Shown here piece by piece: positions 2,542 through 44,958 of a stretch of 64,000 nt of DNA. Origin of the DNA: Candidatus Micrarchaeota archaeon. GTDB taxonomy: Archaea; Micrarchaeota; Micrarchaeia; Micrarchaeales; CABMGC01. How positions within the stretch are numbered: the stretch's first letter is position 1; each line of letters starts with the position of its first letter. The stretch spans positions 677,155 through 741,154 of the forward strand of contig JAJYVH010000001.1 of assembly GCA_021792095.1 (NCBI GenBank). Reading direction: 5' to 3'. Position numbers and translations under genes: made by a program. The notes beneath the pieces are model-generated. The model did not search any database and was not told where the DNA came from. It saw only the letters and a program-made list of their open reading frames with translations.

Positions 2542-5463
2542 TTACCTGCATGTGGCCGATGCGCTGAACCAGCCGCAGTTGCTGGCCGTCTGGCAGGAGT
2601 TGCCGCCCGAATCGATGTTGCTGCTGCTGTTCCCTATGCTCGAGCCGGCGCAGTAGACCGACGCCTTGCTTGAGTCGGAGAACATGTTGCTCTGCATGCT
2701 GCTCCTTGTAGTGTTGTCGAGGTATGCACCGTAGGCGCTGTCCTGCACCGTGTTGTTGGTCACTGTGAGCGCGGTGGAGTTGGTGAATGTCAGGCCGTAG
2801 GAGTTGCCGTAGAGCCTGTTGTTGTACACGTTGGTCTCTGTGGCGTTCGCCACTGTTATACCGCTTGTCCCGTTCTGTATCACGTTGTCGTACACGCTGG
2901 AGAACCTGCCGCTGAGCACTATGGCGTTGCCCGCACGCACTATAGTGTTGTTGTGTATGCTGGACCCCTGGCCGTTGCCCTCGATGCCCGTCGTGAAGTT
3001 GACAAGGAGGCAGTCAGAGATGCTGACTCCAGACGCGTTTGATATATCAGCGAAAGTGCCCCCGTGCTCCGCGTAGACAGTGTGGCCTTCGCAGTCTATG
3101 CTGGTGGTGTTTGCGGAACCGGCCTTGTTCACGTATATGCCGAAGCACGTGGAGCCGCTCGTGAAGAGCAGATCGCGGTTGAACACTACGCTGCTAGGTG
3201 AGAAGAAAGAGGTGCAGGATGGTCCCTGGACCACGCCGCTTGTCTCCACCAGCCAGTCGCAGCCTGCCTTGGTTATGCCTGAATCTACGCTTATCGGGTT
3301 GGAGTACACGCCGGTCGATGTGCCGCTGCACACGTAATCACCTGCCTTGTTGGAGCTCGCGCTGTCGTTGTACACAGTGTTGTTCCTCGAGTTCCCGAAG
3401 TAGAAGCCGTAGCCCGGGTTGCTCGTGGCGCTGTCGAAGCCTATGTTGTTGCGTGTGGCGTTTATGAAAGCGAAGCCGTATGCGCTGCCTGCGCCTGCGC
3501 CCGCGGTGCTGTTCACCACGCTGCTTTCAGCGAGGCGGGTGAGGTTGAAGCCGTAGCCCGTGGCACCGGAGACATGGAGCGACGCAAGCGTGCTGTAGGT
3601 CACGTTGTAGAGCCTCAGTCCGGCAGAAACGCCGCTGAAGCTATCCGACTGGAGCTTGAGGCGAGTGGAGCCGCTGGCGTTCACGCCGAAGGCGAAGTTG
3701 CTGGCCGTGCAGTTGGAGATGCTAACGTTGCTCTCGTTGGCCACGAGGAAGGCGCTGCCGAGCCCCGAGCCGCGTATGCTGTGGCCGTTGCAGCTGAGCG
3801 ACACATTGCTCGCGGCCACTGACAGGCACGTGCTCTGCGCGATAATGTCCTGGCTGAGCTGATACGCGCCCGGCCTCGTTATGGTCTTGCACGAGCTGAC
3901 AGGGTACAAGGAGAGGCTCGGAAGCACTGTCTGCTTGCAGGACGCCGACGCCCACTTGCAGCTCGTCAGGCCGCACGAGAAGCCCTGGGCCAGGTCGGTA
4001 GTGGAGTTGTAAGTGTAAGGCGTGCAGTAGAGGTCGGAGTCTGTGTTGTTCGACGACGAGCCGCCGTTGAACACAGAGCCATAGCCTGAATTCATGTAGA
4101 TGCCGTACGTGTTGTTCCTCGCGTTTGTGTTGTAGAAGAGCGTGCCAGGCGACGAATTCACGAACAGGCCGTAGGTGTCATGGAGCGCCTTGCTGTTGGA
4201 AACTGTGCCCGCAGCAGTGCCGTTCATGGACAAGCCGTAGGTGTCGTTGCTGAAAGTAGAGTTGCTTATGTCAGGCTTGAACGACTGCGACATGTAAACA
4301 CCGTAAGTGTCGTTGTTGAGCACGCAGCCGGATATGCTCACGTTGGGCACCTGGCCCACGTAAATGCCGTAGCTCGAGTCGTGTATCTGCCTTCCGGAGC
4401 AGGTCAGGCTGACGTCCGGCGCAAGCACGCGTATGCAGGAAACGCCATTGGAGAGAGCGCCCTGCTTGCCGGCGTATGCTGCCGTGCTTATGTCGCTCTC
4501 CAGGGCATAGTTGCCCGATATATATATAGTGCCGCACGTGTGCACCGGGCCCGGAGCCAGGCTCACGCTGGAAAAGTTGAACGGCACGTTTGTTGCGCAC
4601 GTCGCAAAGCCGCAGAAGTTGTTGACAGAGCAGGTGGAATTGGTGAACGTGCCGGCATCCTGCGTCGCTGCCGAGGCGTTGCAGATGAGATCGGTCGGAT
4701 TGCTGGCAAATGCATCGTGCGAGAAGCTGTTGCCGGCAGCGTCTAGCACAAGCCCGTAGTACGCATTGCCCGAAGAAACATCGTGCGAGAAGCTGTTGCC
4801 GCTCCCGCTGGCAACGTGTATGCCTCCCTGCTTGCTCTGCGACACAGAGACGCTGTCGTTGCTTATGCTGTTGTTGTACGCTTCAAGCAGGTATATGCCG
4901 GAGAGCGTGGCGTTGGTGAGATGGCTGTCGGCTATGGCCGAGCTGCTGGTTGCGTTGAGGAAGACATCGTACGAGAACCTCTCAACGGTTAAGTTGGCCA
5001 CAGACACGTTGCTTACGCCCTGCAGCAGCACTCCGTACGAGTACGGCTGCGTGTCAGAGAACGGCCCGCTGCCAGTTATCCTGTACCCTCTTCCGTTCAG
5101 CGACACACCGTTCGCTGCAATCACCAGGCATGCTCCAGAAGCTTTGGTGTAGTTCAGGTTGCCGGAAAGGTAGTATGCGCCTGGCTTGTTTATGGTTGTG
5201 CACGCGCTTATCGCTGCGGCGCTTGCCTGCTGCACAGTAGTAGCGGACACGGTCGTGGGCTGGCTTGGATGGCTGGTGACCGCAAGGGCTATGGCGACAA
5301 TCACGATCAAGGCGACAACCGCTACGCCTATGGTCTTCAGCGGCAAGCCTCCGAAACGCGATCCGTACACAGGAGGAAGGGTGCCGCTCGAGCCCGGAGC
5401 CTGTTGCGACGGAGCCGCGCTATCAGGTTGGACTTGGCCCGTACCGTTTGCTTGGTCATCCAT
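2542..5463 (-). CDS. large membrane-anchored surface protein with parallel beta-helix (PbH1/NosD-like) repeats
   Basis: 973 aa with an N-terminal TM helix (IGVAVVALIVIVAIALAV). Repeats of about 22 aa recur, e.g. NDTYGVYM, NDTYGLSM, HDTYGLFV, NNTYGIYM. The protein is rich in Cys and N-x-S/T sequons. Confidence 0.7.
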   Translation of the reverse strand: MDDQANGTGQVQPDSAAPSQQAPGSSGTLPPVYGSRFGGLPLKTIGVAVVALIVIVAIALAVTSHPSQPTTVSATTVQQASAAAISACTTINKPGAYYLSGNLNYTKASGACLVIAANGVSLNGRGYRITGSGPFSDTQPYSYGVLLQGVSNVSVANLTVERFSYDVFLNATSSSAIADSHLTNATLSGIYLLEAYNNSISNDSVSVSQSKQGGIHVASGSGNSFSHDVSSGNAYYGLVLDAAGNSFSHDAFASNPTDLICNASAATQDAGTFTNSTCSVNNFCGFATCATNVPFNFSSVSLAPGPVHTCGTIYISGNYALESDISTAAYAGKQGALSNGVSCIRVLAPDVSLTCSGRQIHDSSYGIYVGQVPNVSISGCVLNNDTYGVYMSQSFKPDISNSTFSNDTYGLSMNGTAAGTVSNSKALHDTYGLFVNSSPGTLFYNTNARNNTYGIYMNSGYGSVFNGGSSSNNTDSDLYCTPYTYNSTTDLAQGFSCGLTSCKWASASCKQTVLPSLSLYPVSSCKTITRPGAYQLSQDIIAQSTCLSVAASNVSLSCNGHSIRGSGLGSAFLVANESNVSISNCTASNFAFGVNASGSTRLKLQSDSFSGVSAGLRLYNVTYSTLASLHVSGATGYGFNLTRLAESSVVNSTAGAGAGSAYGFAFINATRNNIGFDSATSNPGYGFYFGNSRNNTVYNDSASSNKAGDYVCSGTSTGVYSNPISVDSGITKAGCDWLVETSGVVQGPSCTSFFSPSSVVFNRDLLFTSGSTCFGIYVNKAGSANTTSIDCEGHTVYAEHGGTFADISNASGVSISDCLLVNFTTGIEGNGQGSSIHNNTIVRAGNAIVLSGRFSSVYDNVIQNGTSGITVANATETNVYNNRLYGNSYGLTFTNSTALTVTNNTVQDSAYGAYLDNTTRSSMQSNMFSDSSKASVYCAGSSIGNSSSNIDSGGNSCQTASNCGWFSASATCR

Positions 5464-5520: not shown

Positions 5521-5592
5521 GCCCCAGTAACTCAGTGGCAGAGTGCCAGTTTCGTAAACTGGAAGTCGAGGGTTCAACCCCCTCCTGGGGCT
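5521..5592 (+). tRNA. tRNA-Thr (anticodon CGU)
   Basis: Hand-folded cloverleaf: acceptor GCCCCAG/CTGGGGC, D arm ACTC/GAGT, anticodon stem CCAGT/ACTGG with loop TTCGTAA, T arm GAGGG-TTCAACC-CCCTC, discriminator T. Confidence 0.85.
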
Positions 5593-5616: not shown

Positions 5617-6435
5617 TCATTTTATAATCTGTACGTAATCTTCCATGTCTTTTACAAATTTGGCTCTGGTTTCTGCAGACAGAGTCGAATAAGTATTAAA
5701 ATACCTAGAGCAATAGAACTTTTTCTTCGGCTCTGCCGCCTTCAGAAGTTCCACTTTATCACAAACATCCTTTCTCATCAATTCTATTTTCTGGTCTTCG
5801 ATTTTGAAGAAATTGATTTTGTCAGTTACTCTTATATCCACTTCCGTTTCTGGTGCGGAAAGTAAATTCCATACCTTATTTATAAATGCCTTTTTCTGTT
5901 CAGAAAGTACGGCGCCACGATATATTTTCAATGAAATTGCCTTTGCATAATTCTGCGCTACAGAGCCTTCTCTGTCAGTAAGTTTTGAAACCTGACTGGG
6001 TAGCCATACAAGATTCGGGACAAATGTGTTCGCAAGTGGATTGCGAGCGGAATGTTCGCCTCCATTAAATTTTCCCCATATGTGGCTTGCTACAAACCCC
6101 TTTGCCATTTTTTTATTATGATAGAAAGAATTTGGACCAACAACTCTGAACGTACGAGGTATCGCCTTTACGAGACTGTTGTCGTCTCTGAAATATCCGT
6201 TTTTGTCACAAGAACCCCATTCTTCGGTCTTTTTATTTACGGATTTCCTGCATGTCGGATCTCTTACTATAAATGGGCGCAGAACTGGCAAGCTTTGGTA
6301 TAACTCTACAGGAAGCCATATTGATAGGTTCAATATCAGCTTTTTTACAAGTTCTGTGTCTGGGTTTTGAGTTGTTATTGCTTCTTTAAAATAATGGTAT
6401 AATGCATCATCCCCATCTATTGTGCCGTATGCCAT
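5617..6435 (-). CDS. hypothetical protein, possible HNH_2-like nuclease; last gene of the island operon
   Basis: 272-aa ORF, 5 nt downstream of the PD-(D/E)XK gene. The segment GFVASHIWGKF...NPLANTFVPNLVWLPSQVSKLTD loosely fits the xHI...N..N.L.L....FD pattern of HNH_2 nucleases. There is no other recognisable motif. Confidence 0.35.
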   Translation of the reverse strand: MAYGTIDGDDALYHYFKEAITTQNPDTELVKKLILNLSIWLPVELYQSLPVLRPFIVRDPTCRKSVNKKTEEWGSCDKNGYFRDDNSLVKAIPRTFRVVGPNSFYHNKKMAKGFVASHIWGKFNGGEHSARNPLANTFVPNLVWLPSQVSKLTDREGSVAQNYAKAISLKIYRGAVLSEQKKAFINKVWNLLSAPETEVDIRVTDKINFFKIEDQKIELMRKDVCDKVELLKAAEPKKKFYCSRYFNTYSTLSAETRAKFVKDMEDYVQIIK

Positions 6436-6440
6436 GTGAT

Positions 6441-7463
6441 CTACTTCAAGATGTCGATGCCTGGTTTCCGAGACACAATCAGATTATCATGGCCGTCCAA
6501 GTTAATTTCGTAATGAACTACTTCTACACCAGAAGGAACACCTTCCTGAAACTTATCAGCAGTTATTCTGGGGAAAGCATCTTTGACTTCGTACAACGCC
6601 TCATCTACGATACGGAAACGAACCTTTTCATACTCTTCATCGTGCATTGGCGAATATCCCGTGAGAACTAATGTACTTTCAAACGATGCCAATGCATCTT
6701 GATTATTTGCAAGTGAACTACGGCACAATGCAATTAAGCTTGGAAGAGTATTTGTCGCACCACCTTCTTCTCTTAATCTAAGGCTGAAAAAATACAATTT
6801 GCCATTTTCCGGAGGTAAAAGCTGATCTATCCCATGTATCCAATGTACTCTCCCGGCGGTTGATGTGGTGCCTTTTACCTCAACTGATTTTCCTTGCCAT
6901 TCAAAGTCGTGTCTACTGCCTCTAGGTCCTCTCCAACCTACTATTACATCGCTTTGTTTCATATTAGGTAAAAGCCAACAGTTGAGGTACCACAGCTCTG
7001 AAAACAAGCCAATAATTTCTTCTTTCGATAGAATGTTGACAGGCGGTCTACCCCAAAAATACCGCCATTTTGCTAACACCGTACTGACAACTTCTACTTT
7101 CGAGATATTTCCAGAAGAAAGTGAGACGGCGATTTCACGGCCTATTATATCAAACGCTTCTTGGCCTGTTGGGTCTTGACAAATGATATCTATGTATTTT
7201 GATGGCGCTTGATCGTGCTCTTTGATTTTAAGTTCTTCACAAGAAACGCCTATACCGCGGCTTTGGCTATCACTCATGCCCTCTTCGTCTGATGAAAGAG
7301 GTATCAAAAAGTGGCGGGCTCCTTCCGCATCTATTCCAGCTAGCAAGACCGTAGATATTTCGGGAAAGGCCGTCCTGGCTACGAACGTTTCCTCCTTAAT
7401 CCTCGTATTTTTTAAGCGATCCCATATTTCAGTATTTAAGTGACTCATGTTACCGGCCTCCAT
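6441..7463 (-). CDS. PD-(D/E)XK motif protein (putative nuclease subunit)
   Basis: 340 aa. RGSRHDFEWQGKSVEVKGTTS gives the D...E-x-K catalytic signature. The gene overlaps the Z1 gene by 19 nt on the same strand. Confidence 0.6.
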   Translation of the reverse strand: MEAGNMSHLNTEIWDRLKNTRIKEETFVARTAFPEISTVLLAGIDAEGARHFLIPLSSDEEGMSDSQSRGIGVSCEELKIKEHDQAPSKYIDIICQDPTGQEAFDIIGREIAVSLSSGNISKVEVVSTVLAKWRYFWGRPPVNILSKEEIIGLFSELWYLNCWLLPNMKQSDVIVGWRGPRGSRHDFEWQGKSVEVKGTTSTAGRVHWIHGIDQLLPPENGKLYFFSLRLREEGGATNTLPSLIALCRSSLANNQDALASFESTLVLTGYSPMHDEEYEKVRFRIVDEALYEVKDAFPRITADKFQEGVPSGVEVVHYEINLDGHDNLIVSRKPGIDILK

Positions 7464-10060
7464 CCACTGGTTCCTACCAAGAAAGCTTGGACAGGTTGCG
7501 GTTGTTGTGATTTAGGAAACGATATTGCCAAAGCTATCAGGTCCCGCGAATCTTGAGCTGAGGGTTTTTCGAAGAGTGCAATACGGTCTGTTCCCTCTTT
7601 TTTAGGTTTAGAATTCTTACTTATAGGGTATATGAGAAGCAATCCTTCTGTTGCGGGTCGTTCTTGCCTTATTTGAGGCCAGTCTCTATCTGATGGGGCA
7701 GTGGCTTCTACCTTTTTGATTACGTCGTCTGGAAGTCCAAGCATCTGATCTTCAGGCGAAGTAGTTACGCCTACGGAAACACGATCATATTTTTTACGGG
7801 TACGCCTTATCTGCCATATGTGTCCTCCATCCACATTCCATTTGGCTTCTCCAAGTTCCTCATCAAGTTTGCTAAGACCGCGGACTGCTACGGTCCAACG
7901 CAGGAGTTCATTGACTCCCAATTGATGTTCAATGTACGATATTACTAGTGGCAATGAGCAGTCGCCAAAATCATCATGACGGATTTCCTTAAGAAATGTG
8001 ACAAGCTCCTTTGCGGGCACGTTTGACCATATAGGGCCGTTGTCGTCCCACTTTGGTTCTCCGGCAACCCCGAGGAATTTTTTAACTGCAATAAGATTAG
8101 AATCCGACTCCTCTGCTAAAATTGTGGGATTATCAAAAGGAAACTTAAACATTTGTACAAGCTGTCCGCTATAACTTTGTGTTATTTGCATTTCTTGTGC
8201 CGATCGTCTTTTCAGGGGGCTGGTAACTTGCATAGCAGGGTGCTGTAATATGCGCGTACCTACCTCATACGGCTTTATACCAGTATCCTCGTACTTTTGT
8301 ATGTCTTCACGTAAGCTATGTTCAACATAAGCGAGATCGCTAAACCATCCGGCAACTTCTGCTGTGATCCATATGCGTGTGAGATCCCCATAGCCCCTGC
8401 GAAAACCAAACCATCGGCCCATTTGCATCAGTGTATCATAAGTGGCGGTCCTTCTGACAAAGAAACTGGCGAGAAGGCCTTCTAAGGTAAGTCCACGTGA
8501 AAACTTGTTTCCTCCAATCGCTATAACTTTTAATCTGGGCTCATTTTCATAATCTAAGATATTGCCTGTTGCGCTGTTTATCGTGCGCACCTGTACAGCT
8601 TCAAAGAATGGGCCTATGAAGGATTCGATTTTGCTGAAACTAGTGTCAGTAAGCTCTGGATGTAAATTGTGGATAACTGGTTGAAAATCAGATTCCCACA
8701 GTTTTTGCAATCTTTTTCGTATACCTGCTCTGCGCTGATAACGCCATTCGTTCTTGAACTCTGAGAATTTTTGTTCTACAAGACTTTGCGCAGTAGTATG
8801 CGATGCGATCATCTGATCAATATGCACTAGCATCGTCGCGGGTTCGTCGCCTTCGCCTCTAGAAGCCCGCGCGGCTCCAGCTAAGACGAAACCCAAAATT
8901 GCCTTTTCCAAGGATTCAGTAACATTTCCGTTTTTAATGGCGTCTATGTCTGCATCGGGAACGATTCTGATTACGTCCAGTCCTTCAACTTGCGTTTCAG
9001 AAACCGGATCTGTGATACCAAAAAGTTCATCCGCACCAAAATAGTCTCGGGGTCTTGGCAAGTCCACTATGAAGTCTCTCGGGTACAGATCATTTCCCAC
9101 TTGCGGGTCATAAGTATCATGAGGGATGAGAACATTGGCAAAAGGCGTGGCGGTGTATGCTACATATGCCTTTTTCTGGAAGCTATTTAACAGATCTCTA
9201 ATAAGGCCATTTATGACACTGGGCGGCTCGTAATCTTCGGGAGGTGGACCATCTTCGGGTTGATAAGATCCACGGGTGTCTATACTTGCAAGATCTGCTT
9301 CATCATCAATTACCAAAACAGGAATTGCATTCAGTATCGCTGCGGGTGCGCCTGCAAGCCAATACAATAATTTGCGCAAAACCATTCCGTTTTTCTTGAC
9401 TACCATCAATACAGGAGTAGGTCCCTGAAGTGGGGCTTGATTTGCGTGTCCGGGGTTGAAATCTCCATCAACATCATTTGTCGTAACACAGAACCACTGT
9501 TTGCCCAGTGGTGGAAAAGGTACGGATTCGGGATCGTTCCCTGGCATTCCGACAAGTTGTTTCTGAAGACGTATCTGTGTCTGCAACCTGAGTCCTTTAT
9601 CAATTCCCGAAAGTACAATTATCAAACGATAGCCACAATCGACAGCCTTTGCGATTAACGCGGTAAAATTCGTTGTCTTTCCACTCTGGACATGACCAAG
9701 CACCAAGCCACGAATATCAAATTTTTGTGCATCCGGATCGGCAAGATGTCTAAGTATCTGATCTGTTGTGTCTTCGATTGACTTAAGCGCTGGTGCTGGC
9801 AGTATCCTAGAAAGCAGCATATTTCGTAAAGTAGGCCAGTAATACCACATAGAACGATCTTCGTGCTGAAGCCAATCGTTGTCATTATTAGCAGCAATCA
9901 CGTGCGCCCTCTCGAGTATTATGTTGTCGTCTCTTTCCAGTTCTGTTTTGATCGCATCGCGAAATTCAGGAGGTACCGCCGGATTTGCCAGTGCTTCTTC
10001 TCTACTTTGACCTGTAGTAGTCAGGTAACGAACTAAACCTAAGGCTTCTGCTTTATTCAT
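7445..10060 (-). CDS. Z1-domain P-loop NTPase (DEAD/Z1 helicase-like motor)
   Basis: 871 aa. Walker A is LGHVQSGKTTNFTALIAKAVDCGYRLIIVLSG...LRLQTQ, which is typical of Z1 proteins. Walker B/DEAD-like is VLVIDDEADLAS. Confidence 0.75.
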   Translation of the reverse strand: MNKAEALGLVRYLTTTGQSREEALANPAVPPEFRDAIKTELERDDNIILERAHVIAANNDNDWLQHEDRSMWYYWPTLRNMLLSRILPAPALKSIEDTTDQILRHLADPDAQKFDIRGLVLGHVQSGKTTNFTALIAKAVDCGYRLIIVLSGIDKGLRLQTQIRLQKQLVGMPGNDPESVPFPPLGKQWFCVTTNDVDGDFNPGHANQAPLQGPTPVLMVVKKNGMVLRKLLYWLAGAPAAILNAIPVLVIDDEADLASIDTRGSYQPEDGPPPEDYEPPSVINGLIRDLLNSFQKKAYVAYTATPFANVLIPHDTYDPQVGNDLYPRDFIVDLPRPRDYFGADELFGITDPVSETQVEGLDVIRIVPDADIDAIKNGNVTESLEKAILGFVLAGAARASRGEGDEPATMLVHIDQMIASHTTAQSLVEQKFSEFKNEWRYQRRAGIRKRLQKLWESDFQPVIHNLHPELTDTSFSKIESFIGPFFEAVQVRTINSATGNILDYENEPRLKVIAIGGNKFSRGLTLEGLLASFFVRRTATYDTLMQMGRWFGFRRGYGDLTRIWITAEVAGWFSDLAYVEHSLREDIQKYEDTGIKPYEVGTRILQHPAMQVTSPLKRRSAQEMQITQSYSGQLVQMFKFPFDNPTILAEESDSNLIAVKKFLGVAGEPKWDDNGPIWSNVPAKELVTFLKEIRHDDFGDCSLPLVISYIEHQLGVNELLRWTVAVRGLSKLDEELGEAKWNVDGGHIWQIRRTRKKYDRVSVGVTTSPEDQMLGLPDDVIKKVEATAPSDRDWPQIRQERPATEGLLLIYPISKNSKPKKEGTDRIALFEKPSAQDSRDLIALAISFPKSQQPQPVQAFLVGTSGWRPVT

Positions 10061-11384
10061 TTGTCATCCCAAATTTTTCTCTGATACGTTCGAAAATCTT
10101 GCGAAGCATTGGCTTCTGATAGGCTTTGGCCATCGCTAGAACTTCTTTCTCCAGTTCATCCAAGGTCCATGTCTGTTGAGCCGTATTAACAACGCTGGAA
10201 ACACGAGATTCGGATATAGGCATATCTTTCTTTGAGCTTCTCGAACTGGCATCCGAAGACCTAAAGCTCTTTCTTTCTTTTCTATCGTATCTTTCTCGTG
10301 CAATTTTCACAACTTCTTTAACCATGCTGTCGAAGTACTCTCTTTCAGAACTCGGCAATTGTACCTGCATCTTTGAGACATTAAGCTTAAATGCATCATC
10401 CAAGGTAGGTGAAAAACTCAGAGCAATTCGGGCTAGTTTAGTGTGTTCATCTTGGGTTCTGAGTTTGCACCATCCACCACTCTGGATCAGCCGGTTTGCC
10501 CTATAAATATAGAAACCTTGTTGTTGGTTCCAGCCGGTTGGTCCGCCAGCTTTATTGAATGCATCCATTGATGAAAATTCCTGCTGGGAAGGCAGTATGT
10601 ACGGTTCTGCTAGGATGTTTCCAGTTGCACCTTCGTATTCTATGGTCAATCGCCGGGGTTCGAGAGGGACGGTTTTCTCTTTTCTAACAAAGGGATCCCA
10701 AGGCTCAATTGGGTTTCCATTTAGCGAAATTTTCACTTTTTCTCTGCCCTGCACGTATCCAGAAAGGAAGCGATGAAATACCATTGCTAAATGCTCCTCC
10801 AGTTCACGATCCATATTTAGAATACGTGTGCTTGCAGCAACACTGTGCGAGTGTTTGTATTCCAAGAATCGATCTAGTTTCCACCAAAATACCACAGTCC
10901 CTGTGCTCTTGTTTTTAATGAGAGGCTCGAAAACAATTGTTTGCATTTTCTTGTCGGTAAGCTTCAATATTTCCCATTTATCTACATGTGCTATGTGATC
11001 CAGATCCCAACAGAACCCTTCGATTTTGTTCTTTGCGTCATTTCGGCTTGCAACAGCAACAAAGCTGCATTGACTTAGCGAAGCAGTTTTGAGCCCCAGC
11101 CCAAACTTGCCAAGTGCGTCTTCGCTATAGGCTCTTTCCGATCCAAATCGCATGGCTTCTACTAACTGGTCTTCGCTCATTCCTTTTCCGTTGTCTGCAA
11201 CCCTCACCCAAGAGTTACGGCCCCTGTATTCGACGTTTATATCTATCGATGTGGCTCCCCATTCGATTGAGTTATCAACTATGTCTGCAACTGCAGCGGA
11301 GAAGTCATAGCCAACGTCACGTAGAGATCTGATTAACCGTTTTGCACTCGGTATTAGTTCGATAGCTTCAACAGCGCTCTTCAA
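10053..11384 (-). CDS. GHKL-superfamily ATPase (HATPase_c_3; MutL/MORC-like)
   Basis: 443 aa. The Bergerat fold motifs are the N box AVADIVDNSIEWGA, the G1 box VADNGKGM and the G2 box GKFGLGLKTAS. Confidence 0.8.
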   Translation of the reverse strand: MKSAVEAIELIPSAKRLIRSLRDVGYDFSAAVADIVDNSIEWGATSIDINVEYRGRNSWVRVADNGKGMSEDQLVEAMRFGSERAYSEDALGKFGLGLKTASLSQCSFVAVASRNDAKNKIEGFCWDLDHIAHVDKWEILKLTDKKMQTIVFEPLIKNKSTGTVVFWWKLDRFLEYKHSHSVAASTRILNMDRELEEHLAMVFHRFLSGYVQGREKVKISLNGNPIEPWDPFVRKEKTVPLEPRRLTIEYEGATGNILAEPYILPSQQEFSSMDAFNKAGGPTGWNQQQGFYIYRANRLIQSGGWCKLRTQDEHTKLARIALSFSPTLDDAFKLNVSKMQVQLPSSEREYFDSMVKEVVKIARERYDRKERKSFRSSDASSRSSKKDMPISESRVSSVVNTAQQTWTLDELEKEVLAMAKAYQKPMLRKIFERIREKFGMTNE

Positions 11385-12310
11385 GATCTCTCACCATCAT
11401 AAAGTGCCTTCATCGCTTTTGCAGCAGCACGAGAAAAAACAGGACTAACCGAATCAGCCACCATTTGGTATCTTACGCCCAATCCTTCGCCCTTCGGGAA
11501 ACTGTATTTTCTGGGAAACCCCATTAATTGCAATGCTTCCTTGACTGATATTGCACGAGTTTCACCTCCGTTGAAAGAATCTGGATGCAATATGTATGTC
11601 TTCATAACGTTTCCGAAAGAGGGAGCCTGTTCGCGCCATTTCAATACGTACCATCCAAACTGACCTGTTTTATAATATTTCAAGTAGTTATGTATAGTTC
11701 TGAGTCTGGGCCATTCATGATCACTTTCGTCTCCAAAACCGCTGTTTCTTAGGTATCCTATGGCGTCCCTCACAGTCGCTTTATTCTTGGTTTTGTGTTT
11801 TGCAAGCAATTTGAAAAAGTCATGCGAATTGCCCGTACGAGTTCCAAAAACAATAAGTCGGCGTCTTCGTGTCGGTGCTCCAAAGTCTTTGTATGTTACA
11901 AACTCCTCTTCAATAGAGTAACCAAATTTTCCTGAGAGTCTTTTTAGATGTGAATTAAGAATCTTGTCGTTTGCTACAAGAGGAACGTTTTCGAAGAGAA
12001 AGAAAGCAGGTCTATTGATTTCTACGTGTTTGAAGAACCTTCCGACCAGACCATAATCGTGATGCTTCTCTCTTCTTCTAGTCACGTTCACTGCGGACCA
12101 CGGTTTGCACGGAGGCCCACCCATTATGACATCAAATCCATCCGCTATGATTTCCTTGGAAAGATCGGCTTGGATAAAACTTCCTAGCTTATTCAGTCTA
12201 AAGGAATCGGCTGCCTTGTCTGATATGTCTACTCCGGTAACTTTGAATCCCTCGTTGCTAAAACCCGAAGACAGACCTCCAGCACCACAAAATAAATCCA
12301 ATATTTTCAT
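11381..12310 (-). CDS. dcm: DNA (cytosine-5)-methyltransferase
   Basis: 309 aa with motif I ILDLFCGAGGLSSGF, motif IV GGPPCKPWS, motif VI FLFENVP, motif VIII-like APTRRRRLIVFG and motif X-like VADSVSP. Confidence 0.9.
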   Translation of the reverse strand: MKILDLFCGAGGLSSGFSNEGFKVTGVDISDKAADSFRLNKLGSFIQADLSKEIIADGFDVIMGGPPCKPWSAVNVTRRREKHHDYGLVGRFFKHVEINRPAFFLFENVPLVANDKILNSHLKRLSGKFGYSIEEEFVTYKDFGAPTRRRRLIVFGTRTGNSHDFFKLLAKHKTKNKATVRDAIGYLRNSGFGDESDHEWPRLRTIHNYLKYYKTGQFGWYVLKWREQAPSFGNVMKTYILHPDSFNGGETRAISVKEALQLMGFPRKYSFPKGEGLGVRYQMVADSVSPVFSRAAAKAMKALYDGERS

Positions 12311-12729
12311 TGTTCGATCACCATTAATTTTGTATTAAGATTCTTATACCACTGTCTGTTCTCTATCGGCATTGTTATTTGATGTTCCCATATTCTGATT
12401 ACAGTCCACCCTCTGCTCCTTAGTGTTCTATCGACTACTCGATCTCTGATTTTGTTCAATTTTGCCTTGTTTTCCCAGTATTTAGAGTTTGATTTGGGTT
12501 GGACGTAATGCTTAGGGCAGATATGCCAAAAACAACCGTCTATAAAAAGTGCAATTTTACTTACTCCGTTTGCAAAATCCGGATTTCCATATACGTCCTT
12601 CGGGTGGTATGCGAAATTAAGCTGCTTAAGCAGAGTTTCTACTTTGAGTTCTGGCTTGGTTTTGGAACTTCTTATTCTGGACATGTTGTAACTTCTCGTT
12701 GTCTTTGAATGAACGTCCAAGTTAAACAC
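12307..12729 (-). CDS. vsr: very short patch repair endonuclease
   Basis: 140 aa with SRIRSSKTKPEL, FIDGCFWHICPKH and RSRGWTVIRIWEHQI, which are characteristic Vsr blocks. It overlaps dcm by 4 nt. Confidence 0.85.
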   Translation of the reverse strand: MFNLDVHSKTTRSYNMSRIRSSKTKPELKVETLLKQLNFAYHPKDVYGNPDFANGVSKIALFIDGCFWHICPKHYVQPKSNSKYWENKAKLNKIRDRVVDRTLRSRGWTVIRIWEHQITMPIENRQWYKNLNTKLMVIEQ

Positions 12730-12868: not shown

Positions 12869-13090
12869 CTACTTGGCCATGTTGCTCTTATAACTCTTGT
12901 CAAGCCACCACTGATTCTGCCTTCCAACCTTGCGAAACTTCACTTTACCTTGTATTTGCAGTTTAGTGAGTTGCAGTTCGGCAGTGTTCCAGCTTATTCC
13001 CACACCAGCAGCCACATCTTCTGTGGTGCTTGGCCACTCTTGGTTTTTGAGGTATTCCAAGATCCTATTTTGTATATCTTCTCCACGCAT
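12869..13090 (-). CDS. small winged-helix DNA-binding protein
   Basis: 73 aa. ILEYLKNQEWPSTTEDVAAGVGISWNTAELQLTKLQIQGKV resembles a wHTH (ArsR/MarR-like) core. Confidence 0.5.
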   Translation of the reverse strand: MRGEDIQNRILEYLKNQEWPSTTEDVAAGVGISWNTAELQLTKLQIQGKVKFRKVGRQNQWWLDKSYKSNMAK

Positions 13091-13247: not shown

Positions 13248-14426
13248 TTGGCGACACAGATGAAAGAGAAAGGCGACTCTAGGTATAAGAGGTTTATCGA
13301 AACAGCGTTCAGGGAAGTAAGTAGAGTACTAAGGTCGTACTCTGACAGATTCTCAAAGAAGACATATACACAACGACAACTTGCAGTTGCAGTACTGTTA
13401 ATGAAATACGAGGACAAAACATACAGAGATATCACAGATTTGTTGGTTGAATTTGCGGATTATTTTGAGTTCAAGAACAGCACACCCCACTTCACTACCT
13501 TACAAAAGTTCTTCCTCAGAATACCGACATATGTTTGGGAATTCCTACTGACCAAGACGTATGAACTGTTTGCTGGAGATGTTGCAAATGTTGCAATAGA
13601 TTCCACGGGTTACAGACTGCACCACGCTTCGCAACACTATGAACAGAGGACCGGCAGAAAACGGAACCGTAGATGTTTCATGAAATATATTCTATCGATA
13701 GACTCTGACAGTCAGGCGATAATAGTTTCAGAAAGTAGAAGGTCTTGCATAAACGACAACATAACGTTTAGACCGATCCTGAAGAAGACAAAGGACATAG
13801 TTGATGTGGACAATACAACTGCTGACAAGGGATATGACTCAGAAGAAAATCACAGGTTTGCACATAAGAAGATTGGCGCAAACTCGGTCATACCATTACG
13901 ATATGAAATTCCACTACGGCGAACAACAGGGTTGTATCTGGAAAGTACATGCCCGGAGCACGGCAGATACGGAAGTGCCTTGACTGAAAGCACTCATGAC
14001 TTTGTAGACATCAATACTCCCCTAAGGAATGTCATAAAGGAGGCATTATTCATAGAAGAGGCCAAGGCAAAAAGGGCATTGGACCTGATGGTAGACGACG
14101 GGGACTGGGTTCACATGCCCGAATATGTCGTATCTGAAGGGCTGGCCCTTTTGGGTTACAGCTACAAAGACAGACCATCGCGCTTCTTTGCTCCAATCAT
14201 AGAAGATTGGTCAGGAGCAAAGTTCTCAAAGTCAGTTTATGTTGAAAAAGGGACTTATGGTTACTTACCGGCTGGGTTCCTGAACCTAGTTGAGTTCAAG
14301 AAAGAATATGGAAATGGTGGTGTTGACGCACTTTGGAAAGAAGTAAAAGACTGGATTTCTGATCCAAAGAAGATCTTCAGGAATTACAGTGCAGGATATC
14401 TCTTTTCTATCTTAAGAAAGAACTAA
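13248..14426 (+). mobile_element. truncated IS4/IS5-family DDE transposase fused in frame to unrelated sequence (chimeric ORF)
   Basis: The first ~230 aa carry DDE_Tnp_1-like blocks (VAIDSTGY; TTADKGYDSEENH). The third catalytic region (Y..R...E) is absent. After about nt 13941 the sequence changes character (CPEHG...SGAKFSKS...). Confidence 0.55.
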
Positions 14427-14449: not shown

Positions 14450-14809
14450 GTGATGCAAATGATGCACAAGATGTCACTATTTCAGGAACCATTTAATCAG
14501 ATTAAAACTGGCAAGCAAACAATAGAAGTAAGGTTATTCGATGCCAAAAGGAAAAAGGTAAGGCTGGGGGACACTATCATCTTTACACGATTGCCTGATA
14601 AGAAGGAGAAAGTCATGGTCAAGGTGTTGGGGCTGTCCAGATTCCGTTCTTTTCACGATCTGTTTTCTGCATTTGAGGCCGTGAGGTTTGGCCACAAGAA
14701 GGACATCAGGAAAAGCGAACAGGTTCAAAGAATGTACAGATATTATACTCCGAAAGACGAGCAAAAGTACGGAGTGATTGCACTGCATATAAAGCGTGTT
14801 AGTGTTTAA
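14450..14809 (+). CDS. ASCH domain protein
   Basis: 119 aa. MSLFQEPFNQIKTGKQTIEVRLFD...LGDTIIF...VLGLSRF matches the ASCH beta-barrel N-terminal pattern. The start is ambiguous (GTG 14450, ATG 14453 or ATG 14471). Confidence 0.65.
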   Translation: MMQMMHKMSLFQEPFNQIKTGKQTIEVRLFDAKRKKVRLGDTIIFTRLPDKKEKVMVKVLGLSRFRSFHDLFSAFEAVRFGHKKDIRKSEQVQRMYRYYTPKDEQKYGVIALHIKRVSV

Positions 14810-14894
14810 TAAGAACTGATAAGTACATCACTGTATTTCGTTCTATATCAAACAATATCAAACGATAGTGAAAGGGAATGCCACTTAAAGCAGA

Positions 14895-14910
14895 CCTCCC
14901 TCCTAGGGCT
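14895..14910 (+). repeat. degenerate direct repeat of the tRNA-Thr(CGU) 3' end (putative attR of the island)
   Basis: CCCTCCTAGGGCT (14898-14910) matches CCCTCCTGGGGCT (5580-5592) at 12 of 13 positions. It lies where the AT-rich island gives way to GC-rich backbone. Confidence 0.5.
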
Positions 14911-19439: not shown

Positions 19440-20924
19440 GGCCTGCATGCGCGCCGCATCGGCCAATTTCGTTATGCTCATACGTTTCAATATCAGTGAC
19501 ATCCTCCCACCCCTAAAGGGAGTGGGCTTCCTCCACATTTACATTTGTGGATGTTACTTGTGGAGTATGTTCTCGCTTCAGCGACCCGGCTTGCCCGTCC
19601 CTTGCGGAATGGGTGGAGGCCAGGTCTCCACGAGCGTGACTTCCGGCCTGCCCGGCCGTAGCTCTGTTGAGTATGTTTATAGCGGCGTTCACGTCCCTGT
19701 CTGCCACATAGCCGCAGGCGCAGGAGAACGTCCTGTCAGACAGCGACAGTGTGTTGAGCCTGCCGCACCGGCTGCATTCCTGCGACGTGTTCCTTGCGTC
19801 CACCGCTGTTACCGTCATGCCAGCCTCTTCCGCTTTGCATGATAGCGTGCTTATGAACCTGCCCCACGAGGCGCCCTGTATGGACCTCGCAAGCCTGTGG
19901 TTCTGAAGCATGTTCTGTATGTGCAGTCCCTCTACCGCGAACGAGGTATAGCCTGAGCCAATCAGGTCGTCTACTGCCTTGAAGACGAAGTCCTTGGCCC
20001 GGTTGTTGACCTGCTGCCATTTCCTTTCGAGTTGGCGTTTTGCCTTGTCTCTGCGATGAGAGCCCTTCTGCCTCCTGGCTGTAATCCTCTGCCACTTTGC
20101 GATGCGCCTCTCCGCCTTCCTTGCGAAGTCCGGCTTGGTTATCTTCCTGCCGTCAGAGAGGGCGGCGAAGGTCTCCAGGCCCATGTCGATGCCTACAGGA
20201 TTGGCGTCCCTGACCTTTTGCGGTTCAGTTCCGTTTACGGTTGAGAAGATTGCGTAGTATTGGCCTGCCTCCCTCTTTATCGTCAGTGTCTTGACGTTGC
20301 CCACGATTGGCCTGTGGAGCTCTATCCTCATGCCCCCTATCCTCGAGACGCGGAGCATATTGACGTCCTTCCTCTCCCTGTCCACGCTGAAGCCGAACTG
20401 GGGATAGGTTATCGAATTGTACCTGTCCTTTGCCCTGAAGCGGGGGAAGCCCGCCTTGACCCGCTTCCCTGCCCTCCTCTCCCTGACCCTGCGGAAGAAG
20501 TTCTGGTACGCCTTGATGAGGCGGAAGTACGCCTCCCTCTGGACCTGGGAGTAGAGCCCAGAGAGTTCCTTGTTCTCCGCCTTGGCCTCACGCAGGAAAC
20601 GGTTGAATGTTGAGGGTTTGATGGCAAGGCTCTTGGTTTTCCGGTATTCGTCCCTCGCCTTTTCGAGAAGTTTGTTGTAAAGAAGACGCGCTAGTTCTAC
20701 CTGCCCGTCCACCTCACTCTGGCGTTTTGCATCTGGATAGAGCCTGTATCGATAGGCTTTTGTAATGCCCACATAACCTACTGCGCCTTTCATATTATTA
20801 TCCTTTTTGTCGTTATATGCGGCCATTTCCATCTTCCTTTTCCGCCCTCGCTCCCATCCCACCGCTGAAGCATATGGGATTTCCCGCTCCGAAGAGTTAA
20901 ATACGTTACATAGCCACTAGTAGC
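19440..20924 (-). mobile_element. solo tnpB insertion element (IS1341-like, no tnpA)
   Basis: tnpB is flanked by subterminal hairpins at 20856-20880 (ATCCCA...TGGGAT) and 19506-19526 (CCCACTCCC-TTTA-GGGGTGGG, read on the minus strand). Both ends share a GGTGGGAnGG motif. The boundaries are approximate. Confidence 0.6.
19513..20793 (-). CDS. tnpB: TnpB (IS200/IS605-family OrfB; RuvC-type RNA-guided nuclease family)
   Basis: N-terminus YRYRLYPD. RuvC D/E/D residues are in VGIDMGLE, FAVEGL and DRDVNAAINI. The zinc finger is CSRCG...CACG. I prefer MKGAVGY (20793) as the start; the ORF track extends to 20862. Confidence 0.85.
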   Translation of the reverse strand: MKGAVGYVGITKAYRYRLYPDAKRQSEVDGQVELARLLYNKLLEKARDEYRKTKSLAIKPSTFNRFLREAKAENKELSGLYSQVQREAYFRLIKAYQNFFRRVRERRAGKRVKAGFPRFRAKDRYNSITYPQFGFSVDRERKDVNMLRVSRIGGMRIELHRPIVGNVKTLTIKREAGQYYAIFSTVNGTEPQKVRDANPVGIDMGLETFAALSDGRKITKPDFARKAERRIAKWQRITARRQKGSHRRDKAKRQLERKWQQVNNRAKDFVFKAVDDLIGSGYTSFAVEGLHIQNMLQNHRLARSIQGASWGRFISTLSCKAEEAGMTVTAVDARNTSQECSRCGRLNTLSLSDRTFSCACGYVADRDVNAAINILNRATAGQAGSHARGDLASTHSARDGQAGSLKREHTPQVTSTNVNVEEAHSL

Positions 20925-40080: not shown

Positions 40081-41127
40081 CTATAATAATCTTCTGTATT
40101 CCGCGAGCGTGCGGCGCACCATGCGCTCCCAAGTGAAGCCCCTTGCGTACTTTATGGCCTGCTTTGATGCGGGCTTTGGATCCGACGCCAGCTCTATCGC
40201 CTTCGCCGCTATCTCGTCTTCGGTGCCCTTGAAAGCGTACCTGCGCGTCTCCTCAGGTATGGTCGCATCCCTGAGCGTAAGCGCGTTAGTGCCGCACGCC
40301 ATGGCCTCCAGCACAGTAAGCCCCTGCCCCTCGTACTTCGAGAGGTGCAGGTATGCGGCCGCCCTGCTCATGTACTCAGCGACTATGTGGTCGTCCGCCC
40401 TGTAGTGGAGCATCACGTTCCTCTCAGAAACGTGCTTCAGACCCTGCATCAGAGACGCAAGCATCTGCTGCGCCCCGGGGCTGGAGGTGAATATGTGGAG
40501 CCTGGACTTCCTTGCCTCCGCTATCCTGTCGAAGACGCGCAGCAGCCCTCCGAGATTCTTGTGCTTCAGGTGTATCGTGCCCAGGTACACGAAGTCGTTC
40601 CGCTCGCCCTGCCATATGCGCGTGCGCAGATAGGCCTCGGACACGCCGAGCGGTATCACCACGTGCCTCTTGGAAGCGTCGTAGAGCCCGTACCGCCTCA
40701 TATTGCTTTTCAGCTCCTTCAGAGTCTGGGAGCTGTTGCATATGTTGGTATCTGTATCGGCATAGTTGCCCGTCGCCATGCGCCTTACTATGCCTGCAGC
40801 TATGTTGAAGCTCTCCGTGAACCTTGGCCTGTAGCGCTGCTGGCTCCCGCTCCTGTACTTCGAGAGCAGCCTTAGGTCGTGCCACATCGTTAGCATCTTC
40901 GCCCTGCCCTTCCTCACGCGGAGCACGTCGGGATACATCAAGTGCACTATGTCAGAGCCCGTTATTATGGCGGGGTAGAAAGGACGCACCGTCTTGGGCA
41001 GCGTGTAGGTGGCTATAAGCTTGGTGACCGCCTTGTCCCTGACTCCCTTGTACACCTCTGCCGAGTACCTACTTATGCCGTCGTTGGCTGAAAGGTCGAA
41101 ATCGCGGCCCACGAGCGTAACCCTCAT
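40081..41127 (-). CDS. GT4-family glycosyltransferase
   Basis: 348 aa. YEGQGLTVLEAMACGTNALT carries the E-x7-E motif of retaining GT-B enzymes. Confidence 0.75.
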   Translation of the reverse strand: MRVTLVGRDFDLSANDGISRYSAEVYKGVRDKAVTKLIATYTLPKTVRPFYPAIITGSDIVHLMYPDVLRVRKGRAKMLTMWHDLRLLSKYRSGSQQRYRPRFTESFNIAAGIVRRMATGNYADTDTNICNSSQTLKELKSNMRRYGLYDASKRHVVIPLGVSEAYLRTRIWQGERNDFVYLGTIHLKHKNLGGLLRVFDRIAEARKSRLHIFTSSPGAQQMLASLMQGLKHVSERNVMLHYRADDHIVAEYMSRAAAYLHLSKYEGQGLTVLEAMACGTNALTLRDATIPEETRRYAFKGTEDEIAAKAIELASDPKPASKQAIKYARGFTWERMVRRTLAEYRRLL

Positions 41128-41236
41128 ACTGCATGCACTACGAGTTATGTTGCCAATGCAACCTTTTTATTACGGGTGTGTGAAGAGAAGAGCAGAGCAG
41201 AACCAATTTTAAACCTTGAACACAGGGTATATGCGT

Positions 41237-41308
41237 GCCCCAGTAACTCAGTGGCAGAGTGCGAGTTTTGTAAACTCGAAGTCGAGGGTTCGACCCCCTC
41301 CTGGGGCT
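41237..41308 (+). tRNA. tRNA-Thr (anticodon UGU)
   Basis: Same cloverleaf as the tRNA at 5521-5592. The anticodon stem is CGAGT/ACTCG with loop TTTGTAA, and the T loop is TTCGACC. Confidence 0.85.
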
Positions 41309-41511
41309 AACGTTGAATTCGGCGGGGAGTTGAACTGTTTGGAGTGAATCCCTACAAGGGATATAAAACTTCGTGAACCCTGATTCCGAAGACACACTTT
41401 AGATAAAACTGCCACTAAAAGGAAATGCATCAATACCTAGAAAGAGTAAATAAGATGGGGATCCTATGGAAAGAGATAAGGCAGAATTTGAACTGGGAAA
41501 AACAATGGTAA

Positions 41512-41646
41512 GAAAGCTCGATAAAGGCGAAGAAGAGGAATTCTTCATATATTTTCAAAAAGAATGGTTTCCGGATTGAAGGACTTTTGAGAGAACCTTA
41601 CAAAGAAAATGTTGACAGCTTATTTCTAGGAAAGAGACTTGCTTGA
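41512..41646 (+). pseudogene. 3' remnant of a GNAT acetyltransferase gene
   Basis: A 44-codon frame ending at TGA 41644-41646 reads ...SSYIFKKNGFRIEGLLREPYKENVDSLFLGKRLA. This is the typical GNAT C-terminus (K.GF..EG). There is no start codon and no motif A upstream. Confidence 0.45.
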
Positions 41647-41653
41647 TGAGACT

Positions 41654-41761
41654 ATGGAAAACGGAGTATTATTATCCATCTTGCCTGAATGGGCAGACGC
41701 AATATTAGCCGAAACCAAAAAATGGGAGTACAGACGAATTCCACCCGGCATTTCTGAAGGC
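41654..41761 (+). pseudogene. 5' remnant of an ASCH-domain gene
   Basis: MENGVLLSILPEWADAILAETKKWEYRRIPPG matches the ASCH N-terminal strands. The frame then loses similarity and runs into the next gene. Confidence 0.4.
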
Positions 41762-41837
41762 AGCACCACAACCTACAAAGGCTGTGGATTAGGAAACGCG
41801 TTAATAAACTTTGACAGCAAGAGGCAGAGCGAACAAA

Positions 41838-43052
41838 ATGAGAGAGACATATCTGGTTTTCGTGGACCACAGATTCAGCAGGCTAGCGGAGCAGGAATTG
41901 GCCTCCGCGCTTCCGGGCTGCAAGCTCGAGCCGCATCGGATCCGCAACAACGATAAGCTCAACACAGTCTTCTTCAAGGTAGAGGCACCCACGACCGACC
42001 TTCCCGCCAGAATAAGGGAGAGCACCTCCTCGTTCGTGGATTTCGTGCTGCCTGTGGACGCGGTTCTGGACACGAAGGACACGGTGGACTACCTGAAGAT
42101 CGAGGACGCGGCTTCCGCTGTGCTAGCCGGCAATAAACGCACATCATTCAAAATAGAAGTGAAGAAGGCGGGCCTTGCTGCAGATGAGACTGCGAAATCG
42201 ATCGAGGTGCGGCTGGGCGAGGAGCTCGAGGAACGCGGGTACAGGGCTGACCTTAAGACGCCGGAGCTGATGGTCTACGTGATACTTCTTGGCAAGTCTA
42301 CTATAATCGGGCACGTAGGCGCAAAGACGCAGAAAGACCGCACCCTTGACGCGTTCAGGCGCGCTAACAGGCAGGGAGGGGATCGCGTCAACAGAGCGGA
42401 ATTCAAGATAGAGGAAGCTATTGACTTCTTCGGAATAGACCTAGGCAAGCATAAGATGGCCCTAGACATCGGTGCCTCACCCGGCGGATGGACCCACTAC
42501 TTATCCCAGCACGGAATCAAAGTTGTTGCCGTAGACAATGCGCTCCTGAACTACGAAAAGGTAAGCAAAGGCAAGAAAGTGCTGGTAATGGCAGATGCAG
42601 CAGATGTGCCTGGGATTCGAAAGATGCTCGCGGACAACAGGCTCGGCGGGAACGTGTTGGTCAAAGGAATTGGCGAGGATGCTGATTTCAGCGATTATGA
42701 CATAATTCACATAAAGGCAAACATGGAGCGAGACAAGAGAATCGAACTGCTAAAGAGGTTTGGAGAGTTTGACATTCTGACAATAGACACCAATACAGCG
42801 CCACCGGAGAGTTCTGCGATCGCAAACTCTCTAGCGGGCCTGCTGGGCCCGGGGGCACCGCTGGTCATGACCATCAAACTACCAACAAGCGCCTTTAGCA
42901 AGCATATCTCTAGTGCTGAGACAGGGCTCTCTAAGAATTACACATCCATATCTTTGAAGAAGCTCCCGCACAATAGAAGGGAGCTTACGGCATACGGAAT
43001 ATGCAACGCACACAGGACACAACAGCTTCCCGAATCCATACGCGGTGTCTAA
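41838..43052 (+). CDS. THUMP-like domain plus FtsJ/RlmM-like SAM-dependent RNA methyltransferase
   Basis: The N-terminal half resembles a THUMP/ferredoxin-like fold. The C-terminal half has NRAEFKIEEAIDFF...ALDIGASPGGWTHYLSQHGIKVVAVD (FtsJ motif I). Confidence 0.65.
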   Translation: MRETYLVFVDHRFSRLAEQELASALPGCKLEPHRIRNNDKLNTVFFKVEAPTTDLPARIRESTSSFVDFVLPVDAVLDTKDTVDYLKIEDAASAVLAGNKRTSFKIEVKKAGLAADETAKSIEVRLGEELEERGYRADLKTPELMVYVILLGKSTIIGHVGAKTQKDRTLDAFRRANRQGGDRVNRAEFKIEEAIDFFGIDLGKHKMALDIGASPGGWTHYLSQHGIKVVAVDNALLNYEKVSKGKKVLVMADAADVPGIRKMLADNRLGGNVLVKGIGEDADFSDYDIIHIKANMERDKRIELLKRFGEFDILTIDTNTAPPESSAIANSLAGLLGPGAPLVMTIKLPTSAFSKHISSAETGLSKNYTSISLKKLPHNRRELTAYGICNAHRTQQLPESIRGV

Positions 43053-43099
43053 ACGCGGAGGGTTGCTCACTTGGCTACGTTTCCGGATGACCCAAAAAG

Positions 43100-43534
43100 G
43101 TGTCATTTTTTAAATCCTCGAGTAGAGGTTTAAATGATGCAATGCGCTTGAGAGAAAGACTAATTGTCTTGGGCATACTGGCGCTAGCCATGGCAATTCT
43201 GGTTGCCGTTAATGCCTCCGGCATAGCCATAATCGTTCTGGTGGCTTTCCTCGCGATTTCAGGGATATATGTCGCATGGGTGCTCTTCCTGATTCTGTGT
43301 ATCGCACTAGGGATCACGTTCCTGCTCGTGGCTTCTGCAGCGCCAGCGGCAATCGCATTTTGGCCTGTTGTGCCGATTGCGGCAGTCGGCCTGACGCTCT
43401 ATAGGATGTATCAGTTAGGTAAGGATCCAACCGGGATTTCGCTCACAGCGAAGGAAAGCGAAAAACAGAAACGCGCAAACGAGTACGCGGATAACTTGCT
43501 CGAAGAGGCAAAGAAGAAAAAGAAAAGCCAATAG
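43100..43534 (+). CDS. membrane protein (3-4 TM) with charged C-terminal tail
   Basis: 144-aa ORF with long hydrophobic helices and a K/E-rich end. No known motif. Confidence 0.45.
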   Translation: MSFFKSSSRGLNDAMRLRERLIVLGILALAMAILVAVNASGIAIIVLVAFLAISGIYVAWVLFLILCIALGITFLLVASAAPAAIAFWPVVPIAAVGLTLYRMYQLGKDPTGISLTAKESEKQKRANEYADNLLEEAKKKKKSQ

Positions 43535-43556
43535 GCTGCTTTGAGGAAAGGGTCGC

Positions 43557-43742
43557 TCAGCCGTACATTTTCTTCTTCATCCAATATCCATACACAATGT
43601 AGCCTGCAATGAAGAACACAAATATTAGTTCAAAGAGCCCCACGCTGATAACTTTTGACGACATGCCCAAAAGGGCGAATACCAGAACAAGCAACCATAT
43701 GAAGTAAAAATATTTTACGAATACCTTCTTTATGTCGACCAT
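43557..43742 (-). CDS. small two-TM membrane protein
   Basis: 61 aa, two hydrophobic helices, AT-rich gene. Confidence 0.35.
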   Translation of the reverse strand: MVDIKKVFVKYFYFIWLLVLVFALLGMSSKVISVGLFELIFVFFIAGYIVYGYWMKKKMYG

Positions 43743-43823
43743 TGCGCCACCCCCATCCTACGCCAATACATCTAACACAACATTATTTAAATCTTATTCC
43801 GAACGTGTACGTGAAGTGGGCGC

Positions 43824-44111
43824 TTGGCTGGAACAATCAGCGAAGAACAGGCGAAACAGATAGCCTTAGAGTGGACCTCGGCTGCCATAGAGAAGATGAA
43901 CATAGAAAACCATTCGAACTGCAAGGATGCGAAGGTTGTCTCAAAGGCGACTTACGATAAGGACCTGCGCGTTTATGACCTGGTAGTGGAATTCTGGTGC
44001 CGGTCGATAATCTTCAGCCAGAAGTACAGGTACAGGTTGATCATAGGCGCGAACGGGGAAGTCAAGGACGCTAAGTTCATAGACGAGGGGGTCGACATCC
44101 CGCCCCAATAG
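43824..44111 (+). CDS. hypothetical small protein (weakly PepSY-like)
   Basis: 95-aa ORF. The EEQAKQIALEW...YDLVVEF...IIGANGEVKDAKFID pattern loosely recalls PepSY. The call is weak. Confidence 0.3.
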   Translation: MAGTISEEQAKQIALEWTSAAIEKMNIENHSNCKDAKVVSKATYDKDLRVYDLVVEFWCRSIIFSQKYRYRLIIGANGEVKDAKFIDEGVDIPPQ

Positions 44112-44173
44112 CCTGGCGGTGCCTACGATAGAGCGTATTTAAATCTTGTCATACTAGAGCACTAGGTAGTTGC

Positions 44174-44872: not shown

Positions 44873-44958
44873 ACCGGCCCGGTTCCCATTCCCAAAGCCC
44901 AAATACGGACAATCCCTATGAGGGCACTGATGACGTAATCCCGGGCCCACAGACCACT

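Follow-up and report, generated by a model that had tools for sequence, protein, structure and literature searches.

A putative methylation-linked restriction-modification cassette on an acquired island of a Micrarchaeota archaeon, with an optional sixth gene from an unannotated family

A 64-kb stretch of a single archaeal contig (Candidatus Micrarchaeota archaeon, assembly GCA_021792095.1, contig JAJYVH010000001.1, positions 677,155 to 741,154; hereafter the window, whose coordinates are used for all gene positions) carries six co-oriented minus-strand genes: vsr, dcm, a GHKL ATPase gene, a superfamily 2 (SF2) DNA motor gene, a gene for a DUF4420 protein of PD-(D/E)XK nuclease type, and a gene for a protein of 272 amino acids (aa) that we call P272. 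We favour, at somewhat better than even confidence, the reading that these genes constitute a methylation-linked restriction-modification cassette in which Dcm marks self, Vsr offsets deamination and P272 is optional. The five-gene core belongs to a class predicted in 2008; it is also related to the validated defence system Mza. New here are the six-gene variant, which adds an unannotated and confidently folded protein family, and the finding that the GHKL ATPase, the motor and the DUF4420 nuclease (together, the triad) are conserved across methylase types.

All six open reading frames (ORFs) are intact, and an initial annotation of this DNA had placed them correctly, including their overlaps, apart from the start of the DUF4420 gene. 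Profile searches confirmed its assignments for five of the six genes, and a motif check of the proteins found every motif it had quoted present and intact. The vsr gene (12307-12729, minus strand) encodes a very-short-patch (T:G mismatch) repair endonuclease of 140 aa (Pfam Vsr, 1.5e-18) that scores 114.5 bits against NCBIfam TIGR00632 over aa 5-116, with a curated cutoff of 97.85, and carries the catalytic block FIDGCFWH at aa 62-69; since the TIGR00632 alignment already begins at aa 5, the long GTG start is favoured. The dcm gene (11381-12310, minus strand) encodes a C5 cytosine DNA methyltransferase of the short type (309 aa), which matches Pfam DNA_methylase over its full length (1.4e-40, 140.1 bits) and the DrmMII-type model of PADLOC (6.5e-95). 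The protein has motifs I, IV (PC), VI (ENV), VIII and X; among solved relatives 3g7u and M.HaeIII come nearest to it, and the variable target-recognition segment (TRD) spans approximately aa 161-262. An attempt to predict the Dcm target from palindromes avoided in the window's host sequence gave no usable signal, only CTAG, GATC, TATA and ATAT being depleted.

The GHKL ATPase (10053-11384, minus strand, 443 aa) is of the MutL/MORC-like type (Pfam HATPase_c_3, 1.3e-28), with its N, G1 and G2 boxes at aa 36-44, 63-69 and 92-99, and its closest solved sequences are the N-terminal domain of MutL and MORC2. It is followed by the SF2 motor gene (7445-10060, minus strand) and by the DUF4420 gene (6441-7463, minus strand), whose product was first read as 340 aa. 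Gene callers on identical contigs pick an ATG five codons downstream, and the alignment of homologues agrees with this start (W9 is invariant), so the protein is more likely 335 aa long (6441-7448) and overlaps the motor gene by a 4-nucleotide (nt) ATGA rather than by 19 nt. It matches Pfam DUF4420 over its full length (9.7e-64), and an alignment of 40 homologues shows no variation at D181, E190 or K192 (335-aa numbering). Its AlphaFold2 (AF2) model (predicted local distance difference test, pLDDT, 87.4) consists of an N-terminal beta-sheet domain and a C-terminal alpha-beta-beta-beta-alpha-beta core. The family was placed in the PD-(D/E)XK superfamily in 2012, when archaeal members were also noted (PMC3424549), and the predicted nuclease fold rests on this assignment by Pfam and Steczkiewicz, on the motif and on secondary structure. 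With all catalytic motifs intact, the initial view of a coupled, ATP-dependent, methylation-linked cassette of defence type is supported.

We collected related cassettes in a metagenome scan (243 relatives, of which 80 loci were returned) and based the counts on 21 well-flanked loci, drawn from the metagenome and look-up loci, that extend at least 2.5 kb on each side of the triad. Dcm was present in 21/21 of these and Vsr in 20/21. The five-gene core is thus the standard form of a widespread cassette, and to call this particular combination novel, as had been done initially, was too strong. The gene order of the triad was invariant, and Dcm and Vsr occurred in at least seven arrangements. Cassettes were found on mobile islands and on plasmids, with other defence genes alongside, and the plasmid-borne ones carry the expected generic names of the Prokaryotic Genome Annotation Pipeline.

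Identity within the triad holds at 50-67% across loci, even as the methylase switches between at least 11 types. For Dcm the identity in those loci is 23-32%, except in locus L071 (68%), and the 48 complete cassettes hold at least 11 Dcm clusters, with Dcm lengths from approximately 310 to 670 aa. The TRD of the window's methylase aligns only with the methylases of its own cluster, those of loci L071, L122 and L140, while the catalytic core aligns with all the others as well. A reader within the triad that matched its methylase should show up as a segment kept within methylase types and divergent between them. No such TRD-like segment was found in the triad in a co-variation test of 42 cassettes using simple identity windows: the excess of same-type over different-type triad identity was flat, 0.02-0.18 per 20-aa window around a baseline of 0.08. 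This pattern suggests that the triad is probably a generic engine without sequence specificity of its own, and that specificity probably comes from the methylase, or else that 5-methylcytosine (5mC) is read whatever its context.

The logic proposed here is that of Type III restriction-modification (Mod/Res), where the methylase provides recognition and a conserved helicase-nuclease module provides ATP-dependent cleavage; by this analogy the methylase would most likely serve as the recognition subunit, like Mod. Dcm would methylate a specific cytosine context and thereby mark the host DNA, and Vsr would repair the T:G mismatches that 5mC deamination leaves behind. The machine would either receive its recognition from the methylase or read 5mC irrespective of sequence context, and P272 would be optional, outside the core. 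Restriction, the methylation target and the formation of a complex are all elements that we infer.

The initial annotation had also pointed to a likeness to the mza cassette, and here the homology of three proteins proved real: NCBIfam searches matched MzaB (2.2e-75, GHKL ATPase), MzaC (3.1e-141) and MzaD (2.6e-30, DUF4420), and PADLOC agreed. The likeness stops short of the equivalog level. Mza (mzaABCDE; Gao et al. 2020) is modelled in PADLOC and NCBIfam, and the window proteins score 253.8/850, 472/1500 and 105.7/420 bits for MzaB, MzaC and MzaD, far under the NCBIfam cutoffs. Furthermore, no protein of the island matched MzaA or MzaE (AIPR) in PADLOC and profile searches; a true AIPR/MzaE (1.7e-103) was found only in other loci, L015 and L041, and the window cassette instead has Dcm, Vsr and P272.

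In E. coli the mzaABCDE system is protective, and MzaD, once purified, cleaves DNA in vitro and does so non-specifically; canonical Mza defends without a methylase, Vsr or Dcm (bioRxiv 10.1101/2022.06.16.496414). The triad could likewise be a methylation-independent, Mza-like antiviral effector that senses other cues, with Dcm-Vsr a separate selfish or epigenetic module that travels along. Clear homology to MzaB, MzaC and MzaD, the methylase-free defence by Mza, the lack of a methylase-matched segment in the triad and the variable position and orientation of Dcm and Vsr would all suit such an effector. However, Dcm and Vsr accompany the triad far above the level of defence-island coincidence, the window genes form one operon with overlaps of 4-8 nt, and MzaA and MzaE/AIPR, the partners in methylase-less Mza, are absent from the window, and so we consider this explanation unlikely.

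Several observations nevertheless weigh against the restriction-modification reading that we prefer. As Mza works methylase-free, the triad has no intrinsic need of a methyl mark, and the position and strand of Dcm and Vsr relative to the triad vary, which is looser than expected of an obligatory subunit. The co-variation test would miss a few scattered specificity residues, and a Foldseek search with the DUF4420 model returned no match better than E=0.3. In addition, approximately 45% of the P272 loci surveyed (see below) are without a recognised methylase or restriction neighbour, and a literature search turned up no biochemical work on methylase-linked members of the class.

The precedent for the cassette is operon type 3 of Iyer et al. 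2008 (PMC2292703), a purely computational description of the class, with no mechanism, in which neither the sixth gene family nor the constancy of the triad across swapped methylases is reported. The cassette also differs from CglI/NgoAVII, in which a PLD-family R protein bearing a B3-like DNA reader serves as the nuclease/recognition subunit: a Pfam search of the six proteins detected neither a PLD nor a B3 domain, and the cassette has instead a DUF4420 PD-(D/E)XK protein, no evident swappable reader and an extra GHKL ATPase.

MutL is lacking in many archaea and actinobacteria, and another reading takes the cassette not as defence but as portable mismatch repair that offsets 5mC deamination in MutL-less hosts, with Vsr nicking T:G, the GHKL protein activating Vsr, the SF2 motor unwinding in a UvrD-like manner and the restriction-endonuclease-fold protein acting like MutH. 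Each component indeed has a counterpart in MutHLS or very-short-patch repair, Vsr is nearly always present, and many cassette hosts are archaea or actinobacteria; the stimulation of Vsr by MutL in E. coli (discussed in PMC2292703) counts in the same direction. Against it, the same triad is antiphage in Mza without Vsr or Dcm, MzaD degrades DNA non-specifically, and the cassette resides on mobile islands and plasmids beside other defence genes. These facts make a repair function very unlikely in our judgement, and the restriction-modification reading is retained.

The sixth gene, encoding P272 (5617-6435, minus strand), is separated from the DUF4420 gene by a 5-nt gap and belongs to a family without annotation. 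P272 has no match in Pfam, NCBIfam or PADLOC, and Pfam likewise gave none at E<=10 for P272 and 37 relatives. The family numbers 496 homologues, with 401 clusters at 50% identity among 1.84 billion representatives, and approximately 30 residues are invariant, including R58, D59, R63, R83, D84, N86, K90, H118, N141, K151 and D154. Its AF2 model is confident (pLDDT 90.7; predicted template modelling score, pTM, 0.89), and Foldseek found no fold match for it in PDB or BFVD. A sequence-profile search of PDB returned only a spurious match to eL38 (E ~0.02), profile-profile alignments (hhalign) showed no relation to Vsr, DUF4420 or the GHKL protein, and a regular-expression search of the loci examined found no HNH_2-type proteins for a comparison profile.

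In the model of P272, strand 114-118 ends in the invariant H118 (VASH118), the invariant N141 precedes strand 142-146, and helix 147-153 (QVSKLTD154) leads to the invariant D154, an arrangement of H118, N141 and D154 that is compatible with a His-Me finger. Some members of the family are fused to two N-terminal Mrr_N winged-helix domains, the only recognisable fusion, which the window's P272 does not share. Two Mrr_N domains are common to these proteins and to Mrr-type Type IV enzymes, but their putative catalytic part is neither Mrr_cat nor any known nuclease domain. Members from Bacteroidales (L050 9974-11254, L055 1584-2864, L058 4793-6196) bear a C-terminal extension of approximately 150-190 aa without a Pfam match, a second uncharacterised domain joined to the P272 family.

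Besides the window's own cassette, L071 has P272, and is the nearest sister cassette to do so; P272 occurs in 1/21 well-flanked loci and in 0/80 metagenome cassette loci. The sixth gene, which the initial annotation had counted as part of the system, is therefore not a regular member. We also surveyed 60 genome loci centred on P272, of which 36 are well flanked (at least 5 kb on both flanks). Dcm and/or Vsr lay within 7 kb in 15/36 of the latter and the triad in 9/36, and in six loci P272 was less than 400 nt from Vsr. The gene closes operons with Bse634I, Eco29kI or a long GHKL protein; BsaWI and an N4/N6 methylase precede it in four Bathyarchaeia, and one locus places it after an HhH-GPD glycosylase. 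No P272 was found in plasmid and phage collections. As a separate observation, the N4/N6 DNA methylase of Bathyarchaeia locus L021 (7975-9981; also in L022, L018 and L008) carries a DCD (development and cell death) domain at its N-terminus, an unusual methylase fusion.

The role proposed initially, in which P272 is an HNH co-nuclease and the ATPases are sensors, draws on the 5-nt gap to the DUF4420 gene, which places the two translationally close, on the local His-Me finger-like pattern (VASH118, N141, QVSKLTD154) and on the Mrr_N fusion, which suggests an effector domain directed at DNA. The label "HNH-like" was not borne out, however: 38 family members gave no HNH profile match at E<=10, and no fold match emerged. 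Moreover, P272 is missing from 20/21 well-flanked sister cassettes and from all of the metagenome loci, which indicates that the system works without it, it accompanies unrelated restriction enzymes elsewhere, and the triad lacks a methylase-matched segment. Taken as a whole this version is quite unlikely; what we keep of it is Dcm as the putative self mark and Vsr as the putative offset, and not the co-nuclease role.

These data fit P272 being an optional accessory of cytosine-methylation modules, indifferent to the type of methylase, rather than a subunit of the motor complex; in particular, we do not regard it as that complex's cleavage subunit. Our best guess is a DNA-processing enzyme linked to cytosine methylation or to deamination repair. 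More tentatively, and at a confidence well under even that is shared with one linked reading, P272 could found a DNA-processing family of new fold that serves cytosine-methylation modules generally, for instance by acting on Vsr nicks or on glycosylase products after 5mC deamination.

The cassette is set in a segment of lowered GC content (approximately 5.6-15.0 kb, 0.41-0.46, against approximately 0.55-0.65 in the flanks). Its left boundary and insertion point is a tRNA-Thr(CGT) gene (5521-5592, plus strand; ARAGORN, Rfam 67.2 bits), and the P272 stop codon lies 24 nt past the 3' end of this tRNA. The 3' end of tRNA-Thr recurs as an imperfect copy (CCCTCCTAGGGCT vs CCCTCCTGGGGCT; 14893-14910, plus strand; repeat family D1) that coincides with a GC step at approximately 15.0 kb and may mark an attachment (att) site and the right boundary of the island; at 18 nt the copy is too short to be relied on, and comparable 18-mers are present elsewhere in the window, so that it points there only weakly. 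The search of the window for att sites yielded nothing beyond this copy. Between the cassette and this point, a 392-aa ORF (13248-14426, plus strand) carries a partial DDE transposase domain (Pfam DDE_Tnp_1, 5.4e-06, aa 115-229 only), its C-terminal 160 aa being without any match, and probably represents what is left of a decayed or chimeric insertion sequence.

The island in the window has no integrase, unlike L071, in which a tyrosine integrase (10883-12076) directly follows P272, as would be expected if the six-gene version moved as an integrative element. The GC profile, the adjoining tRNA-Thr, the transposase remnant and the L071 integrase beside P272 give good support to horizontal acquisition of the island, and the archaeal RNase P RNA (48022-48259; Rfam), aEF-2, SMC and Hel308-type helicase encoded in the window establish an archaeal host, as the initial annotation had held for this AT-rich island. 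The identical sequence is also present in the metagenome-assembled genome GCA_027363595.1 and in several metagenome assemblies. Assemblies of run SRR13188941 and ENA sample ERZ27237285 both contain the cassette.

Upstream of vsr, a 73-aa winged-helix protein (12869-13090, minus strand; Pfam FaeA, 2.2e-05) is encoded, and immediately 5' of its ATG (window to 13150) lie a TTTAAATA box, which is archaeal TATA-like, and the direct repeat ATGTCATA...ATGTCATA. This gene is kept with the cassette on an independent contig, L002, and was not found beside the other cassettes examined; its product is a possible controller of the cassette. The far end of the AT-rich block encodes a 119-aa ASCH-domain protein (14450-14809; Pfam scan). 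ASCH has a PUA-like fold and is often tied to modified nucleic acids.

On the other side of the tRNA-Thr, 2542-5463 encodes a secreted or membrane-anchored protein of 973 aa with repeated NosD / right-handed beta-helix domains and many N-x-S/T sites, probably a cell-surface protein. A TnpB / IS605 OrfB-type protein of 449 aa with a Cas12f1-like TNB domain is encoded at 19513-20862 on the minus strand. A second stretch of lowered GC (0.46-0.53), at 41000-47000, starts beside a tRNA-Thr(TGT) (41237-41308) and codes for an FtsJ-like methyltransferase-domain protein, an NAD-dependent epimerase and a HAD hydrolase. This could be a further acquired segment or a glycosylation gene cluster. At 63001-64000 the GC content drops sharply to 0.37.

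As a single genome feature the island is otherwise ordinary, one more mobile restriction-modification island. The five-gene cassette that it carries is common in bacteria and archaea, and the constancy of the triad under methylase exchange turns the question of its specificity into a concrete, testable hypothesis. P272, in turn, represents a well-conserved, confidently folding and unannotated family that is linked to modules of cytosine methylase and Vsr.

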